A stretch of 64,000 nt of DNA from contig PLEY01000006.1 of NCBI GenBank assembly GCA_003136595.1, positions 40,169 to 104,168 of the forward strand. The letters are read 5' to 3'. Positions 2,784 to 64,000 of this stretch are shown piece by piece; the stretch's first letter is position 1, and every line of letters starts with the position of its first letter. The translations under genes and the position numbers were made by a program. Source of the stretch: Burkholderiales bacterium (GTDB lineage: Bacteria; Pseudomonadota; Gammaproteobacteria; Burkholderiales; Burkholderiaceae_D). Under the pieces are notes generated by a model that saw only the letters and a list, made by a program, of their open reading frames with translations, searched no databases and was not told where the DNA came from.

Positions 2784-5555
<2,772 letters not shown>

Positions 5556-36349: not shown

Positions 36350-36365
36350 GGCCCCCCTTCTGAAG

Positions 36366-48146: not shown

Positions 48147-49781
48147 ATGCGCAACCCGCAGTCCTCGATCCCGAGCTGGATCCTTTGTCTCGCGCTGTCT
48201 GTCGTCCTCGGACCCATTCTGGCCCGGGCGCAGGACAATGCGGGCGCGTCTCCGCAGTCCCGTCCCGTCCCGGGCAAGCCGCGCTTTAATATCTACGAGT
48301 TCCGTGTCACGGGTAATTCAGTCCTGGAGACCACGGCCGTCGAGCGCTCGGTCTATCCCTATTTAGGCGATGGCAAGACGATCGATGACGTCGAGGCGGC
48401 GCGCGGGGCCCTGGAGCAGGCGTATCACGACAAGGGGTTCTCAACCGTCTCGGTCGTCATTCCGGAGCAACAGGTCAAGGACAGTACTGTTCTGCTGCAC
48501 GTGGTCGAAGGGAGCGTCGAGGCGGTTCAGGTGCTCGGCGCCAAGTACTACTCCCAGGGCCGGATCCTTGAGAAGGTTCCCGAATTTGCCGAGGGCAAGG
48601 TTCCGAGTTTTCCAGTGGCGCAGCAGCAGCTAGCCAGCGTCAACGATGGTCCCGATCGAACCGTCACGCCGCTGTTGCGGCCCGGGAAGCTGCCGGGCAC
48701 CGTCGATGTGGACCTGAACGTCACGGATCAGCTGCCTTTGCACGGCAGCGTCTCGCTGACCAATGACTACACGCCCAACACGACAGCGGCACGCCTTACT
48801 GCGGGCGTTGAGTACGACAACCTCTTCCAGCGCCAGCAGCGCCTCGCGCTCCTCTACCAGATGTCGCCCCAGAACATCGACCAGGTGAAACTCTGGTCGG
48901 TTGCCTACACCATTCCCCTGACCGGACAATTTCTGGCGCTGTCCTTCGTGCGGTCCGACAGTGCCACGATCGCCGGTTTGGGCGGTGTCAGCGTCTTTGG
49001 CCGCGGCAAGATCGTCGGGCTGCATGACATCCTACTGCTACCCGCGCGTGCGCCGACAGAGGGTTCAACTTTTTCTCAGAATCTCAATATCGGGCTCGAC
49101 TACAAGGCGTTCGACCAGAATATCCAGGTCGGCTCGAGTCCGGCCGATGGCTTTGCGACGCCCGTGAGCTACGCACCGCTCTCGGCCTACTACAACGCCA
49201 CGTGGACTCGCGGCGCCAACCAGTGGGATTTCGGCACCGGACTGGAATTTGCCTTACGGGGCGTCGGCAGCACACCGGCGCAGTTCGATGCAAAGCGTTA
49301 TCAAGCACTGGATAATTTCGCGATCTTCCGCATGAACGTGGATCGCTCCCAGGAACTGCCGGGTCAATTCAGCCTCCTCGCCAAACTCGACGTGCAGCTA
49401 GCGGACCAACCGCTCGTGAGCAACGAGCAATTGGTCGTGGGCGGGGTCGATTCGGTGCGAGGCTACCTGACGGCTTCGGAGACCGGGGATAGTGGCGCCC
49501 GGGTCAGCATCGAGCTGCATTCGCCCAAACTCACTGAAGGATTGGCGCCGGTGTCCGAAATGTTAGGCTTGGTCTTCGTCGACGGTGCTTACGCCCGGAT
49601 TCTCTCGCCGCTGCCTGATCAGAAGTCTTCCTACGAACTCCTCAGTGCGGGCGTCGGCCTGCGGGCCAAGGCTGACAAGTCGGCGAGCCTCGCAGTTGAC
49701 TTGGGGTGGCCCATGCGCGCGGTCCCGTTCACCCGCGCCTGGTCGCCGCGCCTGCAGGCCGGGCTCGTATTCACTTACTGA
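48147..49781 (+). CDS. TpsB outer-membrane transporter (ShlB/FhaC/HecB family)
   Basis: ATG at 48147 gives the signal peptide MRNPQSSIPSWILCLALSVVLGPILARA. POTRA region (FNIYEFRVTGNSVL...EQAYHDKGFSTVSVVIPEQQV...VVEGSV). Motifs VGGVDSVRGY, and the barrel ends in ...GLVFTY. Confidence 0.88.
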   Translation: MRNPQSSIPSWILCLALSVVLGPILARAQDNAGASPQSRPVPGKPRFNIYEFRVTGNSVLETTAVERSVYPYLGDGKTIDDVEAARGALEQAYHDKGFSTVSVVIPEQQVKDSTVLLHVVEGSVEAVQVLGAKYYSQGRILEKVPEFAEGKVPSFPVAQQQLASVNDGPDRTVTPLLRPGKLPGTVDVDLNVTDQLPLHGSVSLTNDYTPNTTAARLTAGVEYDNLFQRQQRLALLYQMSPQNIDQVKLWSVAYTIPLTGQFLALSFVRSDSATIAGLGGVSVFGRGKIVGLHDILLLPARAPTEGSTFSQNLNIGLDYKAFDQNIQVGSSPADGFATPVSYAPLSAYYNATWTRGANQWDFGTGLEFALRGVGSTPAQFDAKRYQALDNFAIFRMNVDRSQELPGQFSLLAKLDVQLADQPLVSNEQLVVGGVDSVRGYLTASETGDSGARVSIELHSPKLTEGLAPVSEMLGLVFVDGAYARILSPLPDQKSSYELLSAGVGLRAKADKSASLAVDLGWPMRAVPFTRAWSPRLQAGLVFTY

Positions 49782-49801
49782 CGAGACCCCGTTTCTGACC
49801 T

Positions 49802-52108
49802 ATGGCCAAGCAGAATTCCCTCGCCCCACGCCCGATCCGATCGACAGTCCGCTCTCCCGCAAAGAACTCGTGGGCGGCCGAGCTACCTTATCTCCTTTCG
49901 GCCGGCCATTACGACGGCGCGGAAATGCTGGTTCGCGCTGAATTGCAGCAGCATCCAAGATCGGTCGAGGCACACTACTGGATGGCCGCCATCGGCATCG
50001 CCGCCGCGCGCAAGGAATTCGACGCTCTTGGCTGGGCGAAGAAGGCCGTGTTGCTCGATCCGGGAAGCGCGGATCTTCAATTTACCCTGGGGCGTGCCTT
50101 TAAGGAAGCCGGTCAGCTCGACGAAGCCGCCGCCGCCTATCGACGGGCATTGACCCTCGCGCCGCGCTTTGCCGAGGCATGGGTGAGCCTCGGCATCGTT
50201 CGGCGTGCCCAGGGGGACCTTGAAGACGCGATCAGGTGTTACCGCGAGGCGATCCGGCTCATGCCCGAGCTGCCGGCGGCACACGCGAATCTGGGCAAGG
50301 CTTTGCTGGAACAGCGCCGACTCCAGGTTGAGCACAGTGAAGGGGGGCAAGCCGTCAGCGAGGCACGGATCGTCGCAGCAGAGGAGCACGCGCTGGAGGC
50401 ATTGCGCGAGGCGGATCGGCTTGCGCCCGACGATGCGACCGTCGTCGCCAACCTCGGCAAGGCCTTGGTCGCGCGCGGTGAACTGGATGAGGCCGCTGCC
50501 GTGCTGAACCGCGCCCTGGGGCTTGCCCCGGAGCGCGAGGACCTGTGCGTCAGTCTGGGCGACTGCTACTTCCGGCTTCGCGAACTGGGTGTCGCGCACG
50601 CCATCTACGAACAGTGGCTGGCGGGGCACCCGAATGCCGTTGAAGTACCGCTGAATCTGGTTGGGCTGCTGCTCGAGGTCGGCAAGGTCGAGGAAGCCGA
50701 GAAGTGGATTCGCCACGTCACCGAGCGCGCTCCGGAAAACAAGGGGCTCCTGCAGCCGCTCGGGTTACAGGCCCTCACCCGCGGTGACGCCGCCGAAAGC
50801 CTCGAGTACTATCGCCAGGCCGCAGAACAGGTGTCCGGCGAAGGGAGTTGGTCCGGCTACCTGATGTCGCTGAATTATCGGAGCGAGGATCCGGTAAAGA
50901 TTGCCACGGAGCACCGCCGTGCGCGCGACCATTTCGGTGGAATCGCGGCGCAGAAGCTCGCGCGTTTTGCTGGATTTTCCGCGTCGGCCGCACCCCGGCT
51001 CGCCGCAACCGCAGGCGCGAAAATCCGGATCGGCTTCATCTCGGGAGACCTGCGGCAGCACTCGGTATCGTATTTTCTTGAGAAGGTCTGGACCCACCTC
51101 GATCCGGGACGCTTCGAGATCGTCGGATACCACAATTCGGTCATCACCGATGCAGTCTCGGAGCGGCTGCAGCGATCGGCGAGTGCCTGGATACCCTGCC
51201 TGAAGATGGGCGATACCGCGCTCTTGCGGCGCATTCGATCCGATGACCTCGATGTGCTCATCGATCTGTCGGGTCACACCGGGGGACACCGCCTAAAGGT
51301 CGTTGCAGCCCGTCCGGCGCCTTTGCAGATGACCTATCTCGGGTATCCGACCACGTCCGGTCTGCCCGAGATCGACTACCGCATCACCGACCCCACAATC
51401 GATCCCCCAGGCGAGCCGAATCTTTCTGCGGAGCAGCCGCTGCGGATTCCGGGCGGGATGTTTTGCTACAACCCGGGCTTGGATCCGGAATCGGGGCCGC
51501 CGCCGATGCAGGACAATGGTTTCGTGACTTTTGGTTCCTTCAACAATGCCGCCAAGATCACCGACCGTACGCTCATGCTGTGGAGCGCGGTCCTCGAGGC
51601 CGTTCCGGATTCGAGGCTCTACGTGAAGACCTCGGCGCCGGCCTTCGACCGTACCCGCGCGAGAGTTCTCGCGGTGCTCGATGCATGCGGCATCGCGCGC
51701 GAGCGACTGACGATGATTCGCTGGTCCGCCGAGACCCGGTCTCACCTGGAACAGTACCGGGAGATGGACATCGCCCTGGACACGTACCCCTACAACGGCG
51801 CGACCACAACCTGTGAAGCGCTCTGGATGGGCGTTCCGGTTGTGACCTTGAGCGGCGCGACGCACGTCTCCCGGATGGGTGCCTCGATCCTGAAGAGCGC
51901 GGGACTCGATCAATGGGTGGCGGCGAGTCCCGCCGGGTTCGTCGCGCGCGCTGTCGCTCTCGCCGCCGACCCGGCAGGGCTCGCCGAATTCCGTAGCCGG
52001 GCCCGGTCCCAGTTGGCGGGTACGGCCCTCTACGACGGTGAGCGGATCGGTCGCGAGTTCGGGACCTGTATCGAGCAGGCGGTCAAGAGCAGTCGGGAGC
52101 AACGCTAG
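49802..52108 (+). CDS. TPR-repeat protein fused to a GT41 (SPINDLY/OGT-like) glycosyltransferase domain
   Basis: 768 aa. The N-terminal roughly 350 aa are TPR units. The C-terminal half has GT41 signatures (IRIGFISGDLRQHSVSYF, DVLIDLSGHTGGHRL, QMTYLGYPTTSGLPEIDYRITD, VTFGSFNNAAKI, DIALDTYPYNGATTTCEALWMGVPVVT). Confidence 0.85.
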   Translation: MAKQNSLAPRPIRSTVRSPAKNSWAAELPYLLSAGHYDGAEMLVRAELQQHPRSVEAHYWMAAIGIAAARKEFDALGWAKKAVLLDPGSADLQFTLGRAFKEAGQLDEAAAAYRRALTLAPRFAEAWVSLGIVRRAQGDLEDAIRCYREAIRLMPELPAAHANLGKALLEQRRLQVEHSEGGQAVSEARIVAAEEHALEALREADRLAPDDATVVANLGKALVARGELDEAAAVLNRALGLAPEREDLCVSLGDCYFRLRELGVAHAIYEQWLAGHPNAVEVPLNLVGLLLEVGKVEEAEKWIRHVTERAPENKGLLQPLGLQALTRGDAAESLEYYRQAAEQVSGEGSWSGYLMSLNYRSEDPVKIATEHRRARDHFGGIAAQKLARFAGFSASAAPRLAATAGAKIRIGFISGDLRQHSVSYFLEKVWTHLDPGRFEIVGYHNSVITDAVSERLQRSASAWIPCLKMGDTALLRRIRSDDLDVLIDLSGHTGGHRLKVVAARPAPLQMTYLGYPTTSGLPEIDYRITDPTIDPPGEPNLSAEQPLRIPGGMFCYNPGLDPESGPPPMQDNGFVTFGSFNNAAKITDRTLMLWSAVLEAVPDSRLYVKTSAPAFDRTRARVLAVLDACGIARERLTMIRWSAETRSHLEQYREMDIALDTYPYNGATTTCEALWMGVPVVTLSGATHVSRMGASILKSAGLDQWVAASPAGFVARAVALAADPAGLAEFRSRARSQLAGTALYDGERIGREFGTCIEQAVKSSREQR

Positions 52109-52116
52109 GCGTCCGG

Positions 52117-52704
52117 ATGGAGGCCGCGCACCGACTAGCGCGATGGATCACGCGCGCAACCCGAAGCCAGCCATGGGTCGCGCAATCGGGATTCACCTAC
52201 CTGGGCTTGTTATTCCTGATTGCATTGCTCTGCCTGGCGCTGGCGGCGGCCTCAATCGTCCACAGCGTGGAGTCGCGGCGCGAGAAGGAGCTGCAACTGG
52301 TATTCGCTGGCGAGCAGATCGCCGCGGCCATCGACAGCTATGCAGTCTCGAGCGGTCGCGTTGCGCAGCCCTTTCCGACGGAGCTAAGCGAACTCCTCAG
52401 CGATCAGCGCAGCCTTGTCGGGCTGCACCACCTAAGGCAGATCTACGTCGACCCGATGACGAATTCCAAAGAGTGGGGGCTTCTGAAAACTCCACAGGGT
52501 GGAATCATTGGCGTCTACAGTACCTCGGGGGAGCGTCCCTTGAAACAGAAGAATTTCCCCGACGGCCTAAGCTTTCCTGAGCAGGCGAAAACCTATCGCG
52601 AGTGGCATTTTCTCGCCACCAGCGCCCAGGGCGTCGTCGAGGCCGGCCCCGCGCCGTCTTCCCGAAATACCCAGTCGCCCGAGACTCTCCCACACCGTCC
52701 CTGA
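52117..52704 (+). CDS. GspG-like pseudopilin / prepilin-type N-terminal domain protein, atypical
   Basis: 195 aa. QSG|FTYLGLLFLIALLCLALAA resembles a prepilin cleavage/methylation site but has Gly instead of Glu at +5. The later segment YVDPMTNSKEWGLL recalls the GspG DPWG region. 8 nt after the GT41 stop. Confidence 0.6.
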   Translation: MEAAHRLARWITRATRSQPWVAQSGFTYLGLLFLIALLCLALAAASIVHSVESRREKELQLVFAGEQIAAAIDSYAVSSGRVAQPFPTELSELLSDQRSLVGLHHLRQIYVDPMTNSKEWGLLKTPQGGIIGVYSTSGERPLKQKNFPDGLSFPEQAKTYREWHFLATSAQGVVEAGPAPSSRNTQSPETLPHRP

Positions 52705-52876
52705 AGACTGAGCGCAGGCGCACGTCCCGCGTGGGGCCCATGCCGCACCTCCATGGACCGGTATCGATCTGCCGACTCTCATGACCTGAAATATCTGGAT
52801 TTTCAGGCGATGACGCCGTCCGGACCGCGCCGTCTAGGGGTTTTCTTCGCCCCGCGTCCTGGTTGGGAGCGGTCGA

Positions 52877-52894
52877 GACTAGTCCGTTCTAGTC
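52877..52894. promoter_or_regulatory. perfect inverted repeat GACTAG-N6-CTAGTC, candidate enhancer (UAS) site
   Basis: Read directly. Its centre lies about 125 nt upstream of the sigma-54 -24 element at 53008, a typical distance for an enhancer-binding-protein site. Confidence 0.35.
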
Positions 52895-53006
52895 ATACGG
52901 GACGTGAATCGACCGGGTACCCATGTCACAAGACCCCAATAGAGTGCGAAGGTCCGAAAGAAAAGCAGGTGTTTTCGGGTAAGTCGGGGTTCCCCGGCTC
53001 CCGGAT

Positions 53007-53022
53007 GGGCAAGAGGATTGCC
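53007..53022 (+). promoter_or_regulatory. sigma-54 (-24/-12) promoter for the CTERM-cargo gene
   Basis: The sequence gGGCAaGaggaTTGCc is compared with the consensus TGGCACG-N4-TTGCW. The invariant GG (53008-9) and GC (53020-21) are separated by exactly 10 nt. It lies about 76 nt upstream of the ATG at 53098. Confidence 0.6.
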
Positions 53023-53097
53023 ACTCCGGGTCTTGCAGTAGCGCACAGGGGGCGGTTCCTCCTTTGTGTCCTTCCTCGTACATCTTCAGGAGAACAT

Positions 53098-53925
53098 ATG
53101 AAATTCACAATGAAACTGATCGCAGCTGCAGCAGCCCTGGTCGCGGCGGGCGCAGCTTCGGCCGGTACGACGATCAACCTTCCAGCCACTGGCAGCGACC
53201 TGGTACTGACGGTCTGGGATAACACTCTTCAGCCAGCCGGACAGGCGCTGCCCGGTGTCGCGCTGACGATCGATACCGGCATCACCTACAGCCAGCTCGG
53301 CGTAGGCAGCGCCTTCGTCACGACCAATCACCTGACCGATCTGCTGTCGGCATCCGACACGGCCCTGATCGCATCGGTCTTTGGTAGCGACGCTAGCGCA
53401 TCGTACGGCCTGATCTCGGCCGAGCAGCTCGCCCTGAACAACTGGGTCTACACCTCGGCCGCCTCAGCGACGCTTAACCCGTCACCCAACAACACCGGTT
53501 TGAACAACGCCGGACTCACCGCCTTCACCAGCTACCTCACAGCGGTCAATAACGCCGGCGGCGCCCCCTACCAAGCCAACGGTCAAGGCACGGCGGCGAC
53601 CAACGGTGGCAATTTCATGGCTAACCAGTTCCTTAATGACTTCCTGAACGTCAGGGGTGCCGCGCTCGGTTCCAATTCATACCTTTGGAATTCGACTGCC
53701 ACCCATTCAGGCGTAAATGCCTTGAAGGCCACCACAATACAGTATGCCGGATCCGGCCTGCCGGCTGGGGTTACGGGCTCCTACTTTTCGCTATCGAGCG
53801 CGGGCGTCCTGACCTACACGTACGGCGGTGGCGTCTCCGCTGTGCCGATCCCCGCCGCCGTTTGGCTAATGGGGTCGGGCCTTGTCGGTCTGCTCGGCGT
53901 AGGCCGTCGTCGCCGGGCTGCGTAA
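53098..53925 (+). CDS. secreted protein with a PEP-CTERM-variant (VPIPAA-type) C-terminal sorting signal
   Basis: AGGAGA RBS before the ATG at 53098. Signal peptide MKFTMKLIAAAAALVAAGAASA. The mature part is rich in S/T/N/G/A. The C-terminus VSAVPIPAAVWLMGSGLVGLLGVGRRRRAA has the motif, TM helix and Arg-cluster layout of exosortase substrates. Confidence 0.85.
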   Translation: MKFTMKLIAAAAALVAAGAASAGTTINLPATGSDLVLTVWDNTLQPAGQALPGVALTIDTGITYSQLGVGSAFVTTNHLTDLLSASDTALIASVFGSDASASYGLISAEQLALNNWVYTSAASATLNPSPNNTGLNNAGLTAFTSYLTAVNNAGGAPYQANGQGTAATNGGNFMANQFLNDFLNVRGAALGSNSYLWNSTATHSGVNALKATTIQYAGSGLPAGVTGSYFSLSSAGVLTYTYGGGVSAVPIPAAVWLMGSGLVGLLGVGRRRRAA

Positions 53926-53961
53926 GTCTTCATCGCCCACCGTTGCGGGCAAATCCCTGCC

Positions 53962-53986
53962 GTCCCGGTACCCGCGGTACCGGGAC
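53962..53986 (+). terminator. perfect 11-bp stem / 3-nt loop hairpin just after the CTERM-cargo gene (attenuator or stabiliser; no U-tract)
   Basis: GTCCCGGTACC-cgc-GGTACCGGGAC, 37 nt after the stop codon, followed by TCAAAAAAAT rather than a T-run. Confidence 0.5.
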
Positions 53987-54010
53987 TCAAAAAAATCGAG
54001 TGAGGAAAAC

Positions 54011-55567
54011 ATGAATTTGAAACCCATTACGATGGCCGTGGGTTCGGCCCTCGCAGTCTTATCCGCATCAGCTTTCGCGATCACCCCCGAGGCCTACAAC
54101 GCCATCGCCGCCGCCAACAAGACAGAGGTCTATGTCTCGGGCTCGTCGGCCCTTGATCCTGCACTGTTGCGCATTCTCGCAAATCAGTGCAAGGTGAGTA
54201 CGATCGACGAGTATGTCGGGTCAAACGAGTACGCCGTCTTCTGCCAGACGCCCACCGCCGGCAAGTACTTCGGGTTCTACAAGGAATCAACGAACGGTTC
54301 GGCCAACGGCGTCTTGGCCATTGACGGCGCGGGCAAGACCCGTCCGTTCATCAGTCCCACCGGCATGATCACGGCCCTGGGCGCATCGACCACCGCCTGC
54401 CCCGTCACCAGCACCATCGTGGTCGGTGGGGGCTCGTCGCTTGTGAATTCGGTTGTGATCCACAACTGCGCGGGGATCTCAGCGACTGCGGGTGCTTACA
54501 TCCAGGATGTGCTGCCTGACCTCGGTCTCTCCGATGTGGAGCCACCCATTTTCGTGCCGGGTGGTGTCACGACCGCAACGGTCACGCCGATCGCCGCCCA
54601 GATCTTCGGCGTGCCGGTCTCGAAGAATGTCTATGCCCTGCTCCAGGCGAAGGAGGGCCTTGGCACCGGTGCTGACGAAGCCAATATGCCAAGTCTGTCG
54701 AGCGAGGTCGTCAACGGAATCTATGTGGGCGCGATCACCAACTGGTCGCAGCTCGGTGTTGCGACGGGCAGTACACTGGTCGACGACAACATCTACATCG
54801 CTCGCCGTACCGATCAGACGCTAGGGGGTATCGTCTCCTCAGGAACGCAGACTTCGACCGAGATCTATTACACCACCGAGATCTGCAATCCCAACGTCGC
54901 ATTGAAGTTCCTGCCGGCTAGCACCGTGGACGGCGCGAACGTGATGGCAGACTGCACCACGTCCTCGATCACAGCGTCGTTCAACTACAACAGTCCAAAG
55001 GGTCAGCCTTTCGCCGTATTCGCGGGAACCAGCGGCGGCAAGGTGCAGGGTTGCCTGACACAACTCGGGAAACAAAATCAGGGTGGTATCGGGCTGCTGG
55101 GCGGTACCGATCAGCCGAGTACTGCTGGCTCGAACAACGGCTTTGCATTCGTCAAGATCAACGGCTACTCGCCCTCGATCTATAACGTCGCCAAGGGCTA
55201 TTACAACGACTGGTTCGAGGCTTCGGCCCAGCTCCCGTCGCACAATGGTCAGGGCGGTGCCGCGGGCGCAACCGAGGCAGGCACGATCGTCTCCGAATTC
55301 AACGACGTTGTGCCGATCGGCGACGTCGATGGCGCGATCGTGACATCCTGGGGATCACCTTCCGGACTCTTGGTCAACGGCTATAACTTCGCTTCGGGTG
55401 CCGTCACTGGAACCGCGCTTCCCGCCTCGTTTACTGCGGCGAACGTTCTGGCGAATCCGATCAACCCGTTCGCACGCAACGTGACGGGTACCGGCCAATC
55501 CTGCAATCCGGCCACCCCGGCCAACGCCCCGGTCGCGATCGCCCCGCCGAACCCGAACACGCCCTGA
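54011..55567 (+). CDS. exported protein of unknown function (weak periplasmic-binding-protein-like N-terminal motif)
   Basis: GAGGA RBS. Signal peptide MNLKPITMAVGSALAVLSASAFA. The segment VYVSGSSALDP is reminiscent of the PstS/PBP fold. 518 aa with no CTERM anchor. Confidence 0.7.
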   Translation: MNLKPITMAVGSALAVLSASAFAITPEAYNAIAAANKTEVYVSGSSALDPALLRILANQCKVSTIDEYVGSNEYAVFCQTPTAGKYFGFYKESTNGSANGVLAIDGAGKTRPFISPTGMITALGASTTACPVTSTIVVGGGSSLVNSVVIHNCAGISATAGAYIQDVLPDLGLSDVEPPIFVPGGVTTATVTPIAAQIFGVPVSKNVYALLQAKEGLGTGADEANMPSLSSEVVNGIYVGAITNWSQLGVATGSTLVDDNIYIARRTDQTLGGIVSSGTQTSTEIYYTTEICNPNVALKFLPASTVDGANVMADCTTSSITASFNYNSPKGQPFAVFAGTSGGKVQGCLTQLGKQNQGGIGLLGGTDQPSTAGSNNGFAFVKINGYSPSIYNVAKGYYNDWFEASAQLPSHNGQGGAAGATEAGTIVSEFNDVVPIGDVDGAIVTSWGSPSGLLVNGYNFASGAVTGTALPASFTAANVLANPINPFARNVTGTGQSCNPATPANAPVAIAPPNPNTP

Positions 55568-55655
55568 TGGAGCGCTTCTTCAAGCTCGACGGCTGCTGAG
55601 ATCGTTCTGCTGCTGTGCCCGGCGTTGCCAACAGAGCAACGCCGAGAGGCCCACT

Positions 55656-55685
55656 CCCGGTGTTAATTTTTAACACCGGGTTTTT
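55656..55685 (+). terminator. rho-independent terminator
   Basis: CCCGGTGTTAA-ttt-TTAACACCGGG followed by TTTTT. It is preceded by a second hairpin, GGCGTTGC...GCAACGCC, at 55621-55643. Confidence 0.8.
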
Positions 55686-55879: not shown

Positions 55880-58800
55880 ATGAAACCGCCTTCGAAGAAT
55901 CCCAGGGCTCGCGAGTTCCACGACTCCCCTCGAACACTCCAAGACCCGTCATTCCTGGGAGAGCCGCGCTTCCGGCTTGCGAAGATGGCGCTCGCCGTGA
56001 GTTCCGCATGCCTGGCGCTTGCCTGGGGCAATGCCGGGGCCCAGGTGCGTCCCGGTACCGTTCCGATTCTGAATCCGAACGGGGTCATTTCAGGTGCGGT
56101 CGTGGGTACCGCGGCCCCCAACGGTCGCGGCGGATCGACACTGACGGTCTCGCAGAGCCTGCAAAACGCCATCGTCGAGTGGCAGTCCTTCAACGTCGGT
56201 AGCGCAAGCTCAGTCATCTTCAAGCAGCCCAACGCGAGCGCAGCGATTCTGAACCGGATCTACGACCTCTCCCCCAGCATCATCCAGGGAGCGATCAAGG
56301 CCAACGGGATTGTCTACCTCGTCAACCAGAACGGCATCCTGTTCGACCGCGGCTCGCAGGTAAATGTCGGTGGTCTCGTGGCCTCGACGTTAAATATCGG
56401 CAATGGCGTGTTTGCGGCGGGATTGACCAGTCCGACCCAGGGCTCAGTCGCCTCTCCCACCTTTGTCGGCGGCTACGACTCGTCGGGCAATCCAACCCCG
56501 ACCGTGCCCACCGGCTCGATCCAGATCGGGCGCCAGGGCGACAGCGCGGCGCAGGCCCCCAAGATCACGGCAGCCAGCGGCGGCTCAATTCTCATCATCG
56601 CGCCGGTCGTCAACAACACCAGCGGGATCATCACAGCGCCTGACGGGCAGGTGATTCTAGCGGCGGGCGCTTCGGTTTATCTCTACGATCCTGGTGTTGC
56701 CAATCCTCCGCTCGGCTATAGCCCTTATTCCAATGAAGGCACGGCGCCGGCGAGCCTGCGCGGTTTCGTGGTCGAGGTGAGCGCCGGGGACAGCCCTGTC
56801 AACCTGACCGGGCTCCTGCAGAACACGGGCCAGATCAGTGCGGCCCGCGGCAACGTGACGCTGGCCGGCCTCGCTGTGAATCAGGCCGGACGAGTATCGG
56901 CAAGCAGCGCGGCCCTCTACAATGGAACCGTCTACCTGCAGGCCGGAACCGTCGATGGAAATGGCGGCACAGTCACGCTGGCACCAGGAAGCGTGACCGA
57001 AGCGCTTCCAGACACCATCGATCCGACCAAACTGTCGCAAGCCCAGACCTGGGTCGGTGGCTCGGTCGGCATCACCGGCAAGACGATCATCGACCAGGGC
57101 AAGGTCATAGCACCGGGTGGCTCGGTCTACATGACGGCCAAGGATAACTCCGATCCAACGGGCAGCCGGATCTATCTGGATCAGGGGAGCATCGTGGATG
57201 CATCGGGCTCCTGGAGCACGGTCCCTTTCTCTGACAACCTCCTGACGTTCAAGGTGACCTCGAACGAGCTCGCCAATTCACCGGACCAGAAGGGCGGGTT
57301 GCTCGAGGGCAGCACCGTCGTCGTGGACCTGAGGGATCCGAACAACATTCTCGATCTCTCGGGATATATCTCGGGCCAGTTGTTTTCGGTCCCGCAGAAG
57401 GCCGCGGCCGGTGGCAGCGTGTTCTTCAACTCCGCGGGGGATGTGATCGATCGAAGCGGCTCGGTCGTCAACGTCTCGGGTGGAGGTTTCAACTATACGG
57501 GCGGCTATGAGACGACCACTGCCTTGCTTGGCGCTGATGGCAAGATCTACAACATCAACACTGCGCCCGAGAATGTCCAATATGTCGAAGTGCTGAATTC
57601 GTTTAGCGTCAACCATCCACAATGGGGTCTGACGCAGACGTTTGCCAATCCGCTCTTCAATCTGGCCAGCTACTCACCGGCGTATGCACAGGGTGCCTCG
57701 GCCGGCTCGATCACCTTCAACCAAGCGACCGGTCTCGTCCTCGATGGTCGCCTCCAGGCACAGGTCACGGTCGGGCCGAATCAGCTCGCCAATGCGCCAC
57801 GGGGGGGGACGCTGACGATAGCGCCACTCGCCGGTTCGTCCGAGAGCTACGGGGTCGATAACCTCACCATCGTCCAGTCGGCCAGCGACACGCTTACGCC
57901 GGGCTTTAGCGCTTCAACATCTTTGACGCCGGCCGAGTCGGGCACCGGGGTTCTCGGGGCAACGTCGCTCGGCGGGTCGGCCACGACGCCGATTCAATTC
58001 GACACCCTCAATCTCACCGCCGACGGGACGATAACCGTTCCGTCCAACGTCACGCTTAAGAGCCCGATCGGCGGCACCATCAATCTGAACGCGTCGGCGA
58101 TCAACGTGTCCGGGTCGCTCGTCGCCCCGTCAGGAACTGTCACCCTGGCGACGATTGAACCGGGGTCGTTGCCCAGTGCGAATCCTAATCTGCCGGTAAG
58201 CGCACCGCCGGCGCAATCAGTCACGCTCCACCCAGGCAGCCTCCTCTCCACGGCGGGGATCTGGTTGAATGACGATACTCCGACCGGCGCGCCCCTGGGA
58301 CCGGTTCTGCCGACGGCGATGGCGGCACCCTCCGGCGCAGCGCCCACCGCCGCAATCCCCACTACGCAGGGCGGCAGCATCGCATTGATCGCGCCGTCCA
58401 ACAATATCCTTGCGGGGAGTGTGATCGATGTGTCCGGCGGTGGCCAGATCGGGAAGAACGGTGCGATCACCGGCGGCAATGGCGGGAAGATCTCGATTAG
58501 TGCCTCGACGTTCGAGATCAACGACGCCAACCGCACCACACCGATCACGACCAACCAGATCGATGGCACGCTTAAGGGCTACTCGCTCGCTACAGGCGGC
58601 AGCTTGATCCTCGGTGCCGGCAACGTCTCGATTGCCGATGCGCCAGGTGCGAGCGCATCGGGTGCCACCCCGGTTCTGGCGCTCGCCCCGAGTTTTTTCA
58701 CTCAGGGTGGTTTTTCCAGCTACGACGTCACTGGAGCCTATGGACTGAACGTCGCTGCCGGAACCACGATCGCCCCGACCACTCAGACCGAAATCGTCGA

Positions 58801-61800
58801 CGCGAAAGCAGCCGCCAGCTTGCCGTCCGGAGGCAATCTCGCAGGCATCGCACAGTTCTACACCCGACCCGAGTACTCGGCCGGAACCACCAACGTCGCC
58901 CTGCGAGCACCGAATCTATCGGGCAGCCCGCTCGTCGTCGAGACGGGTGCCGCCATCGTCACCAATCCAAAATCGACGATTACCTTACAGGCAGCAGGCG
59001 GCATCACGGTCGATGGCAGCCTTACGGCCCCCGACGGCACGATCAATTTGAATGTCACGGGCCAGTTCAATGCTGCGGGCAACGACCTTGCCGCAGTTCC
59101 CCTGATCCTTGGCAGTTCCTCAGTACTCTCAACGGCGGGAATTTTCGTCACGACGCCCAACACGCAGGGGCTCACAACAGGTTCGATCCTCGGCGGCGGC
59201 ACGGTCTCGCTGTCGGCCCGCAATGGCAGCGTCACGGCCCTTCCCGGGTCGACCATTGACATCGGTGGCACGAGCCACGCGCTAAGCGTCGCCACGGGGA
59301 CCACGACCCAGCCCTTCGTGACGCCTATCCTCGGCAGCGACGCTGGGCTCCTCACGATTTCATCGACCGACGGTATCAGCATGAATGGCACCATCGACGC
59401 AGCAGGCGGGACTGCGCAGAATGCAGGTGGCAGCTTTGTGGCGACCCTGACCAATCGCAACGCCGGCACCTATGCACCCAGTACATCGCTCTCGCGCAAC
59501 ATCGTGGTGAGCCAGGGTGATGTACCGCCGCCTGCGGATGGAGCGATCGACGCGAGCCTCTCGATGGCCTCGCTGCAGTCCGCAGGCTTCGACAAAATAC
59601 GCCTCCAAAGTGAATCGGCCATCGTTTTTCAGGGTCAGGTCAACGCGACTTTTGCGCGCGGCATCACGCTCGACTCCCCGGAGTATCTTCTTAGCCCCGG
59701 TGCCAATGTGTCGCTTGCGAGCGCGCAACTGGAATTGGCCAACTCGTTTGGCTCGCGCGTACCGGATCTGATCAATCAGACCAATGGTCCCACGCCGCTG
59801 CACAACGGGTTGGCCTCGGATGGTTCGCCTTCGACTCCGGTTCCCACCGTGTCGGGCACCGGAACCTTTACCGCAGAGGGCGCGGTTGTCGATCTGTTCG
59901 GCAGCCTCACCATCAACGGGGCGCAACAGGTCAATATCGTCAGTCAGAGCGACCTGCGGCTGAGCGGGCGTCAAGTCGGCTCACCGGGTTCGCCCGCCGG
60001 GGCTGCTTTGATCGGCTCGCTGACAAGCCAAGCCAATATCAACCTGGTGGCGGCGCAGGTCTACCCGACCACGCAATCGCAGTTCAGCGTGCAGGTGGCC
60101 GATCAACCCGATGCGACTGCGGGCGACGCCACACGGGTTCAAGGTGGGGTGATCACCATCCAGGGTAACGGACATGCTGCGGCACCCGCATTGTCCGCAG
60201 GCGGTCAAGTTACCCTCTCCGCGGATGAGATTAACCAGAACGGGGTGCTCATTGCACCCTTTGGCGAGATCACGCTCGCAGCCGGCTCCAACCTGAATCT
60301 GGGTCCACAGAGCCGAACCTCGGTATCCGGTGCGGGCCTGCTGGTACCGTTCGGCGAGACCAATGCCGGGATCCAGTGGCTCTATTCTGCGACCAACAAC
60401 GATCCTGGTTTCAACGAGATCGTGGCGCCACCGACCAAGAACATTTCCTTTAGCGCCCAAAACATCGACCAGAAGCCCGGTGCCGTGGTCGATATTGCGG
60501 GAGGAGGGGATATTCTGGGCATCGAGTTCGTGCCGCACTCCTCGAGCTCACAGGACCTTCTACTGCAACCGAACACCTATGCGATCCTGCCGGCCGCACA
60601 CCTCCCCGCGGCCCCGTACGATCCGGATATCGCGGCCCGGGCGGACGACGGCATCGGCTTCTCGCCGACCCAGAACCGTGACGCGGCGGTCTACAACAGC
60701 ATCAAAATCGGCGCGGGAGCTGTCGTGCCTCAAGGCAACTATGTCCTGCTGCCGGCCACCTATGCGCTCCTACCGGGGGCCTATCTGGTGCAGGTGCAAA
60801 CAGCAAACAAGTACCAGAACCTTCCTTTTGGCGCGAGCTATAGTCTCCCCAATGGCACTGCGGTGGTGAGCGCCCAGTTGGCCGTCGCGAATACCGACAT
60901 TTCGCAGAGCCAGACAATCGGCGTGATCCTGCAACCGGGTGCAGCCGCTGCACTGAAGGCGTCCGACTACAACCTCGATCGGAGCAGTTTCTTCGTTCAG
61001 TATGCGAAGACCGCTGGGTTGCCGACGCCTTCGACCACGGCCGATGCGGGTCACCTAGTCGTCGATGCGGGCACGTCTTTGCAGCTTGCCGGAACCTTCG
61101 ACACGCAAGGCGCAGCGGGTGGCGCGGGTGGCGAGGTCGATCTGACCGCTACGAAGATCGCGATCGTCGATCAGACCGGAAATCCCGCGATCGACTCCAG
61201 TTTCGTCCAATTCCAGGCGGGCCAGCTGACCAAGTTCGGAGGTGACCTCCTGATCGGTGGTACGCGCACCATTGCGGATGGCACTGCCACGATCACCTCG
61301 GGCGCGAGCGACATCGTGGTCGAGAACACCGCCCAGTCCCCCCTGACGGCCTCCGAGCTCATCCTGACGGCAAGCCAGAGCATCGAGTTCAAGCCGGGCA
61401 GCGTGGTGACTGCGAGTGGCCGGGCCTTGGGCGAACAACTGCCCATCGTGGCCGACCCTTCGGGTGCGCTGGTCCGGGCCTCAAATTCTGGACTTGTGAC
61501 GGTGACGCGCGGTCCGACCGGGGGCGCCGCGGGCGGCGAAATACTCGTGGATGCAGGCGCGACCATCAACGCGCAGTCCTCGATCCAGCTCAATGCCACG
61601 CAAGGCACCCAGGTTGCGGGAACCTTGCATGTCGCTCCCGGCGGGGGTATCGCGCTCGCGGCGCCCGGTATCAGCCTTGGCGACGTCACCGGCCTTCCGA
61701 CCAATGCCGGATTGAGCTTGACGAACGGGCAACTCGCGAATTTCGCGCAGCTCGGAACGCTTGATTTGAGCAGCACCGGCTCGATCGACATCTATGGAGC

Positions 61801-64000
61801 GACGGTACTTGGGGGGCCGCAGCTGGGTAACTTGACGCTCGACGCGACGGCGCTCCTCGCGCATCTCGGCTCGACCTCCAATGCGGCTGCCAACACGACC
61901 ATCGAGGCCGGCTCTTTCGCGTTTCAAAACACTTCGGGCCTGGTATCGAACGCATCCCTGCCTGCGGCGGGAGCACTGGCCATCAGTGCGAACCAAGCCA
62001 CGCTGGGTCAGGGTACAAAGCTGATCGCGGGCTTTGGCACAGTCAGCTTGAATCTTGCCGGTACGCTGACTGCGACGGGCGCCGGTGAGCTCGACAGCGC
62101 GGCCCCGACCGCGATCCGGACCGCCCAGATCACGGGTGCAAGCGGCGCCCAGGCGACGCTCCAGGCAGCCGATCTCAACGCGGCCGCCGGCCCCACGTAT
62201 TTCCCCTTGACCCTCAGTGCTTCTGGGAGCAACCAAGTACCTCCTTCAGGTGTCGGCGCACAGCTGAATCTGGTCGCGAGTTCGATTGACGATAGCGCTG
62301 CGATCGTCATGAAGTCGGGCAGCGTCGTGCTGATGGCGAACGGGGCAGGCGCAGCGGGCAACCTGATTCTTGAGCCGGGCGCACTCATCGATGTGGGGGG
62401 CGCATCGAAATCATTCAACGGCGCGACGGTGACCGCCGATGCCGGTAGCGTCGCGCTTAGCGCCAATGGCCTCATCAATCTCGCTACCGGCAGCAGCATC
62501 TCGGTTGCCGCCGGACCCGCCCTGAATGCAGGCGCCCTGTTCCTTGCAGCAGCGCAAATTCAGACCGAGGGCACGCTGCTGGGGACCGGCGGCACCGCCG
62601 GCCAACAAGGCAGCGCGACCCTCGTTGCCGGTCAGCTGGCTCCTTCTGGATTTAGCCAGATCAATGCCGTCCTGAATGCCGGCGGATTCACCGGGGCACG
62701 AAGCCTCGAGCTGCAAAGCGGCGATCTCGTCGTCGCGAGCTCGGACCATATCATCGCGCATGACCTTACCCTATCGGCAGACCAGGGTTCAGTGATCATC
62801 AATGGAGAGCTTGACGCGAACAGCGCAGCTGGAGGGGGCAAGGTTGCCCTCTATGGTGGCAATGGGGTGGTCCTGAATCCGGGCGCCGTCATCAATGCGA
62901 GCGCCACCAGTTCATCAGGGGGCGCTGGTATTGCCGGTGCGAATGGGGGAGCGGTCACGATCGATAGCCGAGCGACCAACCTCGCCTTGCAGGCGGGACT
63001 CGTTTTCCAGCAGGGCGCAACCATTGATCTAAGCCCCGCCCTCGGAGGCAGCGCCGGATCCGTGACTTTCGTGGCCAACCAGAATGCCACCCAGACCGGT
63101 ATCCTCGCCTCACTGGATGGGACCATTCAGAGTCAGGGTCCGGGAGGCAACACACCTGCAGAAGTGATCGCGCAGGGACGCGCGCTCTACTCGACGAGCG
63201 CACCGCTCGCGGGAAACATCGCGAGCTATGCAGCAAGCAATGCGAACTTCATCAACCAGACCACCGCATCGGGTTTAGCGAACCTTTTTGGCGGGCTGAC
63301 CGTCGATGGCGGTGTCAACCCGGTCGCGAGCGCGCAGCGCCAACTCCAGGGCGCCGTCGAACTGGACTCGACGGGGAATCTGACCCTCAATACCGGCTGG
63401 GACCTGACCACCGCCAATTGGCTCGCCGCCGGCGACGTCGGAACCCTGACGCTGCGCGCCGCAGGCAATGTCGTCGTCAACAGTTTCATCGGGCTGCCGA
63501 ACAACACCTCCTTGCCCGCTGGGGCAAGCTGGGGCGTGCAGATCGCGGGTGGGGCGAATCTGAATGCGGCCGATCCGTTGGCAGTCAATCCCCTGTCGAG
63601 CTTTGCCACGTCCGGCCAGGGCAACGTCATCCTCGGAACCGCGGCGTCGGCGCTCCGCACCGGAACAGGCTCGATCGCGATTGCGGCGGGCAACGATTTC
63701 AGCCTCGCCAATGCGCACGCAGTGATCTACACCGTTGGTGAGACAGCGGTCCCCGATTCTGAAAATCGCTGGGGCTCGCAAGGCGGCAGTATTACGATTA
63801 GCGCGCAGCACGACGCTACGGGCGTTGCCAGCGAGTGGATCACGGATTGGATGCGCCGCGATCGCGGCTCGAACAGCGCACCGCCGAGCGGCGACTGGTA
63901 CAGTTATCGTTCGAACTTCTTCGATGGCCTGGGTACATTTGGCGGCGGTGACATCTCCCTGACCGCCGGCAACGACATCAACGACCTGCCGGCGATGGTC
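55880..64000 (+). CDS. giant TpsA exoprotein (filamentous-haemagglutinin family), 3' end beyond the window
   Basis: Not in the supplied ORF track. Frame 2 is open from 55796 to 64000 by my own hand translation. The track lists no frame-2 plus-strand ORF in this span. Candidate starts are ATG 55880 and ATG 55985 (MALAVSSACLALAWGNAGAQ signal). TPS domain: LTVSQSLQNAIVEWQSFNVGSASSVIFKQPNASAAILNRIYDLSPSIIQGAIKANGIVYLVNQNGILFDRGSQVNVGGLVAST. The remainder is G/A/S/T/N-rich beta-helix-like sequence. Confidence 0.85.
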   Translation, partial: MKPPSKNPRAREFHDSPRTLQDPSFLGEPRFRLAKMALAVSSACLALAWGNAGAQVRPGTVPILNPNGVISGAVVGTAAPNGRGGSTLTVSQSLQNAIVEWQSFNVGSASSVIFKQPNASAAILNRIYDLSPSIIQGAIKANGIVYLVNQNGILFDRGSQVNVGGLVASTLNIGNGVFAAGLTSPTQGSVASPTFVGGYDSSGNPTPTVPTGSIQIGRQGDSAAQAPKITAASGGSILIIAPVVNNTSGIITAPDGQVILAAGASVYLYDPGVANPPLGYSPYSNEGTAPASLRGFVVEVSAGDSPVNLTGLLQNTGQISAARGNVTLAGLAVNQAGRVSASSAALYNGTVYLQAGTVDGNGGTVTLAPGSVTEALPDTIDPTKLSQAQTWVGGSVGITGKTIIDQGKVIAPGGSVYMTAKDNSDPTGSRIYLDQGSIVDASGSWSTVPFSDNLLTFKVTSNELANSPDQKGGLLEGSTVVVDLRDPNNILDLSGYISGQLFSVPQKAAAGGSVFFNSAGDVIDRSGSVVNVSGGGFNYTGGYETTTALLGADGKIYNINTAPENVQYVEVLNSFSVNHPQWGLTQTFANPLFNLASYSPAYAQGASAGSITFNQATGLVLDGRLQAQVTVGPNQLANAPRGGTLTIAPLAGSSESYGVDNLTIVQSASDTLTPGFSASTSLTPAESGTGVLGATSLGGSATTPIQFDTLNLTADGTITVPSNVTLKSPIGGTINLNASAINVSGSLVAPSGTVTLATIEPGSLPSANPNLPVSAPPAQSVTLHPGSLLSTAGIWLNDDTPTGAPLGPVLPTAMAAPSGAAPTAAIPTTQGGSIALIAPSNNILAGSVIDVSGGGQIGKNGAITGGNGGKISISASTFEINDANRTTPITTNQIDGTLKGYSLATGGSLILGAGNVSIADAPGASASGATPVLALAPSFFTQGGFSSYDVTGAYGLNVAAGTTIAPTTQTEIVDAKAAASLPSGGNLAGIAQFYTRPEYSAGTTNVALRAPNLSGSPLVVETGAAIVTNPKSTITLQAAGGITVDGSLTAPDGTINLNVTGQFNAAGNDLAAVPLILGSSSVLSTAGIFVTTPNTQGLTTGSILGGGTVSLSARNGSVTALPGSTIDIGGTSHALSVATGTTTQPFVTPILGSDAGLLTISSTDGISMNGTIDAAGGTAQNAGGSFVATLTNRNAGTYAPSTSLSRNIVVSQGDVPPPADGAIDASLSMASLQSAGFDKIRLQSESAIVFQGQVNATFARGITLDSPEYLLSPGANVSLASAQLELANSFGSRVPDLINQTNGPTPLHNGLASDGSPSTPVPTVSGTGTFTAEGAVVDLFGSLTINGAQQVNIVSQSDLRLSGRQVGSPGSPAGAALIGSLTSQANINLVAAQVYPTTQSQFSVQVADQPDATAGDATRVQGGVITIQGNGHAAAPALSAGGQVTLSADEINQNGVLIAPFGEITLAAGSNLNLGPQSRTSVSGAGLLVPFGETNAGIQWLYSATNNDPGFNEIVAPPTKNISFSAQNIDQKPGAVVDIAGGGDILGIEFVPHSSSSQDLLLQPNTYAILPAAHLPAAPYDPDIAARADDGIGFSPTQNRDAAVYNSIKIGAGAVVPQGNYVLLPATYALLPGAYLVQVQTANKYQNLPFGASYSLPNGTAVVSAQLAVANTDISQSQTIGVILQPGAAAALKASDYNLDRSSFFVQYAKTAGLPTPSTTADAGHLVVDAGTSLQLAGTFDTQGAAGGAGGEVDLTATKIAIVDQTGNPAIDSSFVQFQAGQLTKFGGDLLIGGTRTIADGTATITSGASDIVVENTAQSPLTASELILTASQSIEFKPGSVVTASGRALGEQLPIVADPSGALVRASNSGLVTVTRGPTGGAAGGEILVDAGATINAQSSIQLNATQGTQVAGTLHVAPGGGIALAAPGISLGDVTGLPTNAGLSLTNGQLANFAQLGTLDLSSTGSIDIYGATVLGGPQLGNLTLDATALLAHLGSTSNAAANTTIEAGSFAFQNTSGLVSNASLPAAGALAISANQATLGQGTKLIAGFGTVSLNLAGTLTATGAGELDSAAPTAIRTAQITGASGAQATLQAADLNAAAGPTYFPLTLSASGSNQVPPSGVGAQLNLVASSIDDSAAIVMKSGSVVLMANGAGAAGNLILEPGALIDVGGASKSFNGATVTADAGSVALSANGLINLATGSSISVAAGPALNAGALFLAAAQIQTEGTLLGTGGTAGQQGSATLVAGQLAPSGFSQINAVLNAGGFTGARSLELQSGDLVVASSDHIIAHDLTLSADQGSVIINGELDANSAAGGGKVALYGGNGVVLNPGAVINASATSSSGGAGIAGANGGAVTIDSRATNLALQAGLVFQQGATIDLSPALGGSAGSVTFVANQNATQTGILASLDGTIQSQGPGGNTPAEVIAQGRALYSTSAPLAGNIASYAASNANFINQTTASGLANLFGGLTVDGGVNPVASAQRQLQGAVELDSTGNLTLNTGWDLTTANWLAAGDVGTLTLRAAGNVVVNSFIGLPNNTSLPAGASWGVQIAGGANLNAADPLAVNPLSSFATSGQGNVILGTAASALRTGTGSIAIAAGNDFSLANAHAVIYTVGETAVPDSENRWGSQGGSITISAQHDATGVASEWITDWMRRDRGSNSAPPSGDWYSYRSNFFDGLGTFGGGDISLTAGNDINDLPAMV

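Follow-up and report, generated by a model that had tools for sequence, protein, structure and literature searches.

A conserved gene cassette joins a CTERM protein, a predicted PstS-fold protein and a two-partner secretion pair at an exosortase/exopolysaccharide locus of a Burkholderiales bacterium

Introduction

Exosortase/PEP-CTERM systems occur widely among bacteria of the environment and of wastewater, and to our knowledge the route by which exosortase cargo reaches the surface, as well as its role, is largely unknown. Here we analyse a stretch of 64,000 nucleotides from a Burkholderiales bacterium (contig PLEY01000006.1; the whole stretch is called the window below) in which the two genes of a two-partner secretion (TPS, type Vb) pair, tpsB for the outer-membrane transporter and tpsA for the exoprotein, stand on either side of genes for a GT41 glycosyltransferase, a pseudopilin-like protein, a CTERM protein and an exported protein of 518 aa, next to a locus for exopolysaccharide (EPS) synthesis that also encodes an exosortase. 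The core of this arrangement is a module of four genes, encoding the CTERM protein, a ~500-aa protein of predicted PstS fold, TpsB and a TpsA of ~3400 aa with a DUF3739 domain, and the linkage of these four genes is conserved across many proteobacterial lineages.

Five described systems come close to parts of this module. In Haemophilus influenzae hmw1ABC the cytoplasmic GT41 enzyme HMW1C is a third partner of the TPS pair and modifies the adhesin HMW1 (PMC3983070, PMC2877744); in both systems the genes for the adhesin (TpsA) and its transporter (TpsB) are accompanied by one for a GT41 enzyme that lacks a signal peptide (PMC3983070, PMC2877744, PMC5422565). The window differs in that its GT41 has real tetratricopeptide repeats (TPRs) and is SPINDLY/OGT-like, and in that it adds CTERM, PstS-fold and pseudopilin-like genes. 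Pseudomonas aeruginosa CdrA binds the exopolysaccharide Psl (PMC5422565, PMC6156197), and cdrA-cdrB shares with the window a large TpsA/TpsB pair tied to an exopolysaccharide matrix (PMC5422565, PMC6156197, PMC4694147). Likened by function and not by sequence, cdrAB is the best functional analogy for a TPS pair in an EPS locus, although no LapG/LapD genes were seen in our locus and its TpsA is ~3400 aa long.

In Aquincola tertiaricarbonis/Zoogloea, pepA and prsT are required for the formation of flocs (PMC9850573), and the window likewise has a small secreted Ser/Thr/Asn-rich CTERM protein encoded near a PrsT-type gene in an EPS/exosortase locus. The window signal is, however, of the VPLPA type, the predicted sortase is XrtD and not XrtA, and the match to the PepA family stands at 21 bits (cut-off 80); control by RpoN, as shown for pepA, is unsupported in the window, and no TPS or PstS-fold partner is mentioned in PMC9850573. 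In the P. aeruginosa locus hxc T2SS-lapA-pdtA-phdA-pdtB, a PhoB/VreI regulon, genes for a type II secretion system (T2SS) and for a secreted protein related to phosphate stand together with a TPS pair that another gene splits (PMC7035377). There, in contrast to our locus, the phosphate-related protein LapA is an alkaline phosphatase and not of PstS fold, and CTERM cargo, exosortase and GT41 are absent; conversely, Pho control is unsupported in the window, which is without T2SS genes.

The fifth system, XrtD/VPLPA-CTERM (TIGR04152/TIGR03370), is matched in the window by an exosortase well above the XrtD cut-off and, less firmly, by a presumptive cargo that ends in VPIPAA, a hydrophobic helix and an Arg cluster and scores below the TIGR03370 cut-off. 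It has been defined in silico only, and neither the literature search nor the family hits showed an association of it with TPS, PstS-fold or pseudopilin genes. A literature search returned no paper on XrtD/VPLPA-CTERM biology or on a joining of PEP-CTERM with two-partner secretion, and nothing relevant on DUF3739, on exosortase with pseudopilin or on XrtD/EDSAP. The components have precedents, and in the papers searched we came across no description of their predicted combination, VPLPA/PEP-CTERM with a PstS-fold protein and a DUF3739 TPS adhesin, whether GT41 and T2SS parts are present or not.

Results

Layout of the locus

TPS genes usually share one operon, and other arrangements exist (PMC5422565). 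In the window tpsB and tpsA lie 6.1 kb apart, and all six genes were located where the original prediction, which had drawn attention to four genes within a gap of ~6 kb, had placed them. The module sits at the edge of the exopolysaccharide/exosortase locus; its features are listed here, gene families having been assigned by Pfam and NCBIfam profile searches of translated open reading frames (ORFs) with the model cut-offs applied.

40510 to 42087, plus strand: predicted XrtD exosortase with fused EpsI domain (TIGR04152; Pfam Exosortase_EpsH and EpsI)
45184 to 47562, minus strand: PrsT-like TPR lipoprotein gene (792 aa), divergent from tpsB (TIGR02917, below cut-off)
48147 to 49781, plus strand: tpsB, outer-membrane transporter, 544 aa (POTRA_2 and ShlB)
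49802 to 52108, plus strand: TPR and GT41 glycosyltransferase, predicted SPINDLY/OGT type, 768 aa (PF13844 and TPRs)
52117 to 52704, plus strand: GspG-fold pseudopilin-like protein, 195 aa (predicted fold, prepilin-like N-terminus)
52877 to 52946, plus strand: conserved non-coding element 5' of the CTERM gene (alignment of 10 upstream regions)
53007 to 53021, plus strand: sigma-54-like match GGGCAAGAGGATTGC with 2 mismatches, unsupported as a promoter
53098 to 53925, plus strand: PepA-like, VPLPA-type CTERM surface protein, 275 aa, presumptive XrtD cargo (C-terminus VPIPAAVWLMGSGLVGLLGVGRRRRAA)
54011 to 55567, plus strand: exported protein of predicted PstS fold, 518 aa (signal peptide, profile and Foldseek)
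55656 to 55680, plus strand: intrinsic terminator-like hairpin after the 518-aa gene (11-bp stem, then TTTTT)
55880 to 64000, plus strand: tpsA, giant beta-helix-type exoprotein, cut by the end of the window (TPS domain)

The ORF listing bears out the tight packing that had been claimed for the first three genes, the GT41 gene following tpsB after 20 nt and the 195-aa gene following after a further 8 nt; 393 nt then precede the CTERM gene, and 85 nt separate the latter from the ORF at 54011-55567, which does carry a signal peptide as expected of the exported 518-aa protein. Identical DNA was found on two ENA metagenome contigs (105 and 140 kb).

A four-gene core conserved across lineages

One genome per GTDB species was scanned with an alignment of the 518-aa family, which gave 80 loci whose ORFs were called and then searched with the window proteins. 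Many of these loci are contigs of metagenome-assembled genomes (MAGs), and all co-occurrence counts are raw, uncorrected for phylogeny. The loci span Burkholderiales, Thiobacillus, Nitrosomonas, Methylococcales, Woeseiaceae, Spongiibacteraceae, Chromatiaceae, Tenderia and others, the Methylococcales carriers including Methylomonas spp. and Methylotuvimicrobium buryatense 5G. TPS genes are present in 45 of the 55 loci that have at least 2.5 kb of downstream sequence, and a CTERM gene lies directly upstream in 45 of the 64 that have at least 1.2 kb of upstream sequence; tpsB homologues were detected in 63 of the fetched loci. Across loci the product of the CTERM gene ends in VP[VLI]PAA.W...RRRK, and in Thiobacillus/Hydrogenophilales in VPEA(D/E)..AMMLAGLGL..RRRK. 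Homologues of the 518-aa protein at ~30% identity gave the same picture, since all three contexts retrieved (a JGI metagenome, a Hydrogenophilales MAG and Thiobacillus) consist of a CTERM gene (256-289 aa), a ~500-aa gene, tpsB and a tpsA whose product of 3436-3655 aa carries TPS and DUF3739 domains. The ten TPS-negative loci are all without a CTERM neighbour too and therefore appear to represent a paralogous subfamily.

Two gene orders account for the position of tpsB. In the canonical order, found in 47 loci, tpsB stands between the ~500-aa gene and tpsA; in the split order, found in 10 genome loci as well as in L093, L094 and the window, it stands upstream of the CTERM gene. Most split loci belong to a Burkholderiales group, and a single one, L076, comes from a Thiohalobacterales MAG. 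Within the Burkholderiales group the genes run pseudopilin-like, tpsB, GT41, CTERM, ~500-aa, (second GT41), tpsA; L093 has pseudopilin-like, tpsB, CTERM, ~500 aa, tpsA, and L092 has PrsT-like, GT41, pseudopilin-like, CTERM, ~500 aa, tpsB, tpsA. A close relative from an independent sample has a gene order identical to that of the window. The frequencies of the two positions of tpsB (47 against 10 loci) indicate that the split TPS pair is a rearrangement within a conserved cassette, so that the picture of four genes inserted between tpsB and tpsA gives way to one of reshuffling inside a pre-existing four-gene set. The test proposed with the original prediction, in which lack of conservation of the intervening genes with the TPS pair would have counted as chance insertion, thus came out in favour of linkage, in dozens of species-level loci. 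More generally, a TPS pair that looks "split" need not be a disrupted operon and can result from rearrangement within a conserved cassette.

The TPS-less PstS-fold subfamily comprises L012, L013, L020, L021, L026, L033, L042, L066, L067 and L078, each with its match near position 10001. In its Thiobacillus loci a CTERM-motif ORF of ~520 aa lies ~1.7 kb downstream instead.

The CTERM protein and its presumptive sortase

The 275-aa protein ends in VPIPAAVW...RRRRAA, that is, in the sorting motif, a hydrophobic helix and an Arg cluster, and its gene at 53098-53925 is the only CTERM ORF in the window. An alignment to floc_PepA covers residues 4-273 of 275. Its family, of which 40 members were searched, is homologous over the full length and matches VPLPA-CTERM in 32 of 40 members (E<=0.01), floc_PepA in 28 of 40 (best 1e-11) and EDSAP-1 in 25 of 40; the floc_PepA matches are weak, and the 275-aa protein itself, at 21.4 bits against a cut-off of 80, is a distant floc_PepA relative only. 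XrtA had been named as the sorting enzyme. The exosortase of the window instead scores 562.8 bits with TIGR04152 (cut-off 400) and 194.6 bits with the XrtA model, below the cut-off of 208, which identifies it as XrtD, the VPLPA-CTERM-specific type. The XrtD assignment and the VPIPAA signal of the only CTERM ORF form a matching pair, and the 275-aa protein is a presumptive XrtD cargo.

The EPS locus contains gmd, fcl, a WecA-like transferase, a tyrosine kinase, an export protein and many glycosyl- and methyltransferases in addition to the exosortase. Its XrtA-system chain-length determinant scores above cut-off (TIGR03007, 307 bits; cut-off 279), and together with the XrtD exosortase this means that the locus mixes XrtA-type polysaccharide genes with an XrtD sortase. 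The PrsT-like protein has a lipoprotein-like N-terminus (MNRLCSVAPLGLVVAVLLCGC). An exosortase or PrsT-like gene adjoins the module in L011, L027, L082 and L092, and in L092 the PrsT-like gene is placed just upstream of GT41 and is co-directional with it.

The 518-aa protein has a predicted PstS fold

The 518-aa protein has no Pfam or NCBIfam match above threshold. A profile of its family matched solved structures of phosphate-binding proteins, 9l8j at 9e-6 and also 4ecf and 1twy, and the 9l8j alignment spans the LS..Q...IF.G....W and R..SGTQ motifs, with ARRxxSSGTQ retained. Foldseek of the AlphaFold2 (AF2) model, which is of low confidence (predicted local distance difference test, pLDDT, 56), returned PstS first (4exl at 6.9e-7). 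With the PstS family model TIGR02136 the protein scores 18.9 bits against a cut-off of 206.6, and 14 of 17 family members give weak hits of this kind; no dedicated NCBIfam family for 518-aa PstS-fold proteins was found. Relative to PstS proper, the fold and the R..SGT motif are present, the family cut-off is not reached and the pstCAB context is missing, no pst genes having been found in the loci whose genes were listed; the PstS-fold proteins of the module are ~500 aa long with insertions. The family is thus best described, on its profile matches and modelled structure, as a predicted PstS-fold exported protein of the phosphate-binding type.

TpsB and TpsA

TpsB matches PF08479 POTRA_2 (53 bits, cut-off 24; 2.6e-14) and PF03865 ShlB (66 bits, cut-off 22.7; 4.2e-18), and TpsA matches the TPS domain PF05860 over residues 84-265 (80.5 bits, cut-off 33.5; 2.4e-22) as well as TIGR01901 (80.4 bits, cut-off 29.1; 6.8e-23). 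The pair therefore has the barrel and POTRA domain of the transporter and the TPS domain of the exoprotein that mark two-partner (type Vb) secretion, and is without the arrangement in one operon. The tpsA ORF runs from 55880 and is called from 55985 on the parent contigs, where the full product is 3395 aa long and has precomputed Pfam hits to TPS and DUF3739 only. Residues 1-3194 (read from L088) contain Cys only within the signal peptide, 19% Ser+Thr and 41 NxS/T sequons. Pfam searches of residues 1-2706 and 2401-3194 did not find DUF3739, which must therefore sit in the last ~200 aa. A homologue search with the C-terminal 806 aa retrieved 5 distant fragments and never the 3395-aa protein, the best fragment (P0171) lying in an unrelated non-TPS context, and scans of JGI metagenomes for the TpsA C-terminus with exact 50-mers and protein patterns gave no match.

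The GT41 glycosyltransferase

The GT41 protein matches PF13844 (141 bits, cut-off 25) and gives many TPR family hits. Its catalytic half scores 282 bits with SPINDLY, 221 with TtOGT, 161 with XcOGT and 117 with human OGT, and the SPINDLY alignment is contiguous over catalytic-domain residues 19-359 (~408-748 of the 768-aa protein). With the HMW1C-like N-glycosyltransferase (NGT) 3q3e the score is 21.7 bits (E 6e-4), and this low value beside 282 bits for SPINDLY, together with the presence of true TPRs, led us to reject an HMW1C-like N-glycosyltransferase. The profile scores point to an enzyme of the OGT/SPINDLY type, in which the catalytic domain is preceded by TPR repeats. Lacking a signal peptide, it should act in the cytoplasm, and its likeness to SPINDLY/OGT rather than HMW1C leads us to expect O-linked and not N-linked modification. 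GT41 adjoins tpsB in L008, L009, L010, L015, L016, L017, L019, L029, L043 and L094, and stands next to tpsB in every Burkholderiales-type split locus.

The GT41-bearing locus of the window also encodes GDP-fucose synthesis (gmd and fcl, window 7594-9742). SPINDLY is an O-fucosyltransferase, and the pairing of gmd/fcl with a SPINDLY-like enzyme suggests, as a lead only, that the protein modification may be O-fucosylation and not O-GlcNAc.

A second, more divergent GT41 is encoded on the minus strand in three loci (L008:6285-7853, L010:11606-13645 and L019:11612-13813). It lies between the PstS-fold gene and tpsA in L010 and L019 and after the PstS-fold gene in L008, whose contig stops short of any tpsA. 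In the Rubrivivax locus L011, two GT41 genes stand in tandem.

The pseudopilin-like protein and its type II secretion neighbourhood

The 195-aa protein has no Pfam or NCBIfam family match above threshold and no hit to TIGR02532 or PF07963. Its N-terminus reads QSG|FTYLG, with Gly at +5 where Glu5 is expected, and the family (2755 representative clusters at E<=1e-3) has the N-terminal consensus GFTYLG, again without Glu5. The AF2 model (pLDDT 86.6) begins with a long helix that leads into a small sheet, and its top four Foldseek hits are PulG/EpsG/GspG at weak E-values of 0.2-0.6 (probability up to 0.84). By phmmer the protein matches the canonical GspG-like pseudopilin of L009 at 7.5e-7, one of the canonical GFTLIE pseudopilins of related loci to which it is related in this way, and public sources label its homologues PulG. 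Compared with GspG, fold and homology are present; a prepilin motif with Glu5 and a context of T2SS assembly genes are missing. These models and matches argue for a GspG-fold pseudopilin-like protein with a degenerate prepilin motif.

Apart from the gene for this protein, the search revealed no T2SS gene in the 64-kb window. Of the 37 related TPS-positive loci whose upstream sequence extends to at least 6 kb, 15 carry T2SS or type IV pilus (T4P)-like core genes no further than 10 kb upstream. These sets comprise a secretin, GspE/F, GspK/L or PilN/O and pseudopilins, often with the PEP-CTERM-associated regulator EpsA, and they occur in bacteria of several orders. In L009 and its group the set includes a secretin, two canonical pseudopilins and EpsA (TIGR03020, 204 bits in L009; cut-off 170), phmmer homologues of which occur in 11 further loci; Methylomonas has a complete gspD-M cluster directly upstream of the module, and the upstream genes of Tenderia encode GspE/F, PilN/O-like proteins, a secretin and pseudopilins. 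Four such segments directly upstream of the module were delimited:

L009, 494 to 4247: T2SS/T4P-like genes
L062, 1 to 8290: T2SS/T4P-like genes
L070, 175 to 7825: T2SS/T4P-like genes
L092, 563 to 4343: T2SS/T4P-like genes

Homologues of the 195-aa protein at 45% identity lie in the same module in L092 and L093. The description of this gene as an "orphan" GspG-like pseudopilin holds for its GspG-like fold and for the lack of T2SS genes in the window; it does not hold for relatives, in which the gene is a conserved module member beside secretin and canonical pseudopilin genes. The gene is accordingly an orphan locally and not evolutionarily.

Transcription units and regulatory elements

The CTERM gene had been described as sigma-54-driven. 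The VPIPAA ending attributed to its product was confirmed, and the promoter fared less well. GGGCAAGAGGATTGC lies 77 nt upstream of the CTERM ATG with two mismatches, and matches of that quality are expected by chance ~0.10 times per 300 nt; the regions in front of the orthologues in the other 52 loci yielded no sigma-54 match as good, which makes the site unique among 53 upstream regions. Being unconserved and near the chance rate, it is treated as unsupported. A different element is conserved at 52877-52946, with invariant columns at 52895-52945 in an alignment (A3) of ten Burkholderiales-type upstream regions. It consists of a CTAG-containing motif followed by GACAC-N9-TAnAnT, ~150-220 nt upstream of the CTERM gene and hence with a long leader, and fits neither the sigma-70 nor the sigma-54 consensus. 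A sigma-70 consensus scan returned no sites, and no Rfam family, c-di-GMP riboswitches among them, matched the interval 47.4-56.2 kb at E<=1.

The hairpin at 55656-55680 has an 11-bp stem with 6 GC pairs followed by TTTTT, and its position after the 518-aa gene suggests that tpsA is a separate transcription unit. The layout as a whole suggests three putative units, tpsB-GT41-195aa, CTERM-518aa and tpsA.

Discussion

Our preferred reading, to which we give a probability of roughly 0.6, is that the window from 45.2 to 64 kb and beyond is a conserved multi-gene surface module joined to an XrtD exosortase/EPS locus, with a matrix-tethering mechanism. Starting from the gene content, families, folds and conserved linkage reported above, we infer localisation, glycosylation target, ligand and matrix role by analogy with the described systems. 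TpsA would cross the inner membrane by Sec, be threaded through TpsB and form a long surface fibre, and the CTERM protein, likewise exported by Sec, would be retained through its C-terminal helix and undergo processing by XrtD. Export is also proposed for the PstS-fold protein, its retained anion-binding pocket binding a phosphate-bearing ligand. GT41 may O-glycosylate one or more Ser/Thr-rich cargos in the cytoplasm before export, comparable to the action of HMW1C on HMW1. The assembly could then tether the locus-encoded polysaccharide and the cells into a matrix or floc, comparable to CdrA-Psl and to PepA/PrsT in Aquincola. That the region is a composite surface module had been proposed from the window itself; the tracking of the TPS pair by the CTERM and 518-aa genes across lineages supports this, while glycosylation and a matrix role continue to depend on analogy.

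Several observations weigh against this reading. The CTERM protein falls below the cut-offs of both relevant families (TIGR03370, 21.3 bits against 25.35; floc_PepA NF033554, 21.4 against 80), and seven TPS-positive loci have no recognisable adjacent CTERM gene. The PrsT-like gene scores 276 bits with TIGR02917, below the cut-off of 312, and its 792 aa compare with a model of 899 positions, so that of the claim that the cluster is divergent from prsT we retain a divergent TPR lipoprotein gene at 45184-47562 and not its identity as PrsT. The sequence read ends at TpsA residue 3194 of 3395, and a C-terminal toxin or sorting signal may lie beyond it. The Ser+Thr content of the CTERM protein is higher in GT41-positive loci (24.1% versus 19.6%, p = 0.004), a difference confounded by phylogeny and for that reason not used as evidence of a substrate. 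The retained PstS motif and the T2SS genes near many relatives point elsewhere and are taken up below. Finally, GT41 and the pseudopilin-like gene are missing from most lineages that carry the core and so cannot be essential to its function; they are lineage-specific additions and not, as had been supposed, core members of the module. It appears from the comparison of gene orders that in a mainly Burkholderiales lineage the module gained GT41 and the pseudopilin-like gene and tpsB was shuffled to the front, which left two core accessory genes between tpsB and tpsA.

The conserved gene set ties one exosortase cargo family to a giant TPS adhesin and a PstS-fold protein, to which some lineages add a protein glycosyltransferase and type II secretion parts, and Methylomonas and Methylotuvimicrobium buryatense are cultivable carriers. 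It is conceivable, though we think it improbable, that the module unites three cooperating export routes, namely release by XrtD, outer-membrane transfer by secretin and pseudopilins, and a TpsB-dependent fibre as scaffold. XrtD would free the VPLPA-CTERM protein from the inner membrane, and a secretin/pseudopilin machinery, represented here by one Glu5-less GspG-fold protein, would move the CTERM or PstS-fold protein outward. If true, this would explain in concrete terms, for the first time, how exosortase cargo is brought to the cell surface and kept there.

An alternative, raised by the PstS fold and not considered in the original prediction, is that the region is a secretion locus for phosphate limitation, in which a PstS-fold scavenger or DING-like protein would be secreted by a T2SS-like machinery, with the TPS pair co-regulated and the CTERM protein as another secreted member. 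The PstS fold and R..SGT motif, the T2SS/T4P-like genes upstream in 15 of 37 TPS-positive loci, with gspD-M complete in Methylomonas, and the published case of a PhoB-controlled locus that unites a T2SS, a secreted protein related to phosphate and a TPS pair in split form (PMC7035377, PMC5422565) all speak for it. A Pho-box scan of the module intergenic regions gave 3 weak hits (3-4 mismatches) where ~0.9 are expected, no clear sign of Pho control. We regard this alternative as rather unlikely for this locus, because pstCAB, phoBR and phosphatase genes are absent from it, T2SS genes are absent from the window, and the module is embedded in an EPS/exosortase locus, with EpsA and PrsT-like neighbours in relatives.

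The module could also be an HMW1ABC-like three-partner system only, with GT41 glycosylating TpsA and the pseudopilin-like, CTERM and PstS-fold genes as mere neighbours. A cytoplasmic GT41 is a published third TPS partner (PMC3983070, PMC2877744), and the 20 nt between tpsB and GT41 and the Ser+Thr and sequon content of TpsA would fit; we judge it distinctly unlikely because the CTERM and PstS-fold genes track TPS in at least 45 loci, most of them without GT41, and because this GT41 resembles SPINDLY/OGT (282 bits) and not HMW1C (21.7 bits). Chance juxtaposition, by which four genes of no relation to each other came to lie inside an ordinary TPS pair, would agree with the usual single operon (PMC5422565) and with a 393-nt gap and hairpin that leave at least three likely transcription units, and is hardly credible given that dozens of species-level genomes keep these genes beside the TPS pair, some in the canonical and some in the split order, a GC content of 0.60-0.66 all through the region with no compositional break, and the independent-sample relative of identical order. 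A contact-dependent inhibition (CDI) or cytolysin-type TPS system, with a toxin in the ~200 C-terminal residues of TpsA that follow the sequence read, is very improbable in view of the precomputed Pfam hits of the full 3395-aa product, which include no toxin domain, and of a visible neighbourhood that has an EPS/exosortase context and no CDI indications.

Other genes of the EPS locus

Seven ORFs of 366-727 aa in the EPS locus have no NCBIfam match at E<=1e-5, and most are without a precomputed Pfam hit:

16461 to 17717
19153 to 20709
23910 to 25538
27344 to 28444
28413 to 30596
36309 to 37844
37841 to 39100

A 577-aa protein encoded at 21853-23586 in the same locus has DUF2341 and Laminin_G_3 domains fused to a MotA/TolQ/ExbB proton-channel domain. 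At the start of the EPS locus lie two ordinary genes, one for an MgtA-type magnesium-translocating P-type ATPase (2784-5600; 1369 bits) and one for a mannose-1-phosphate guanylyltransferase (6110-7552).

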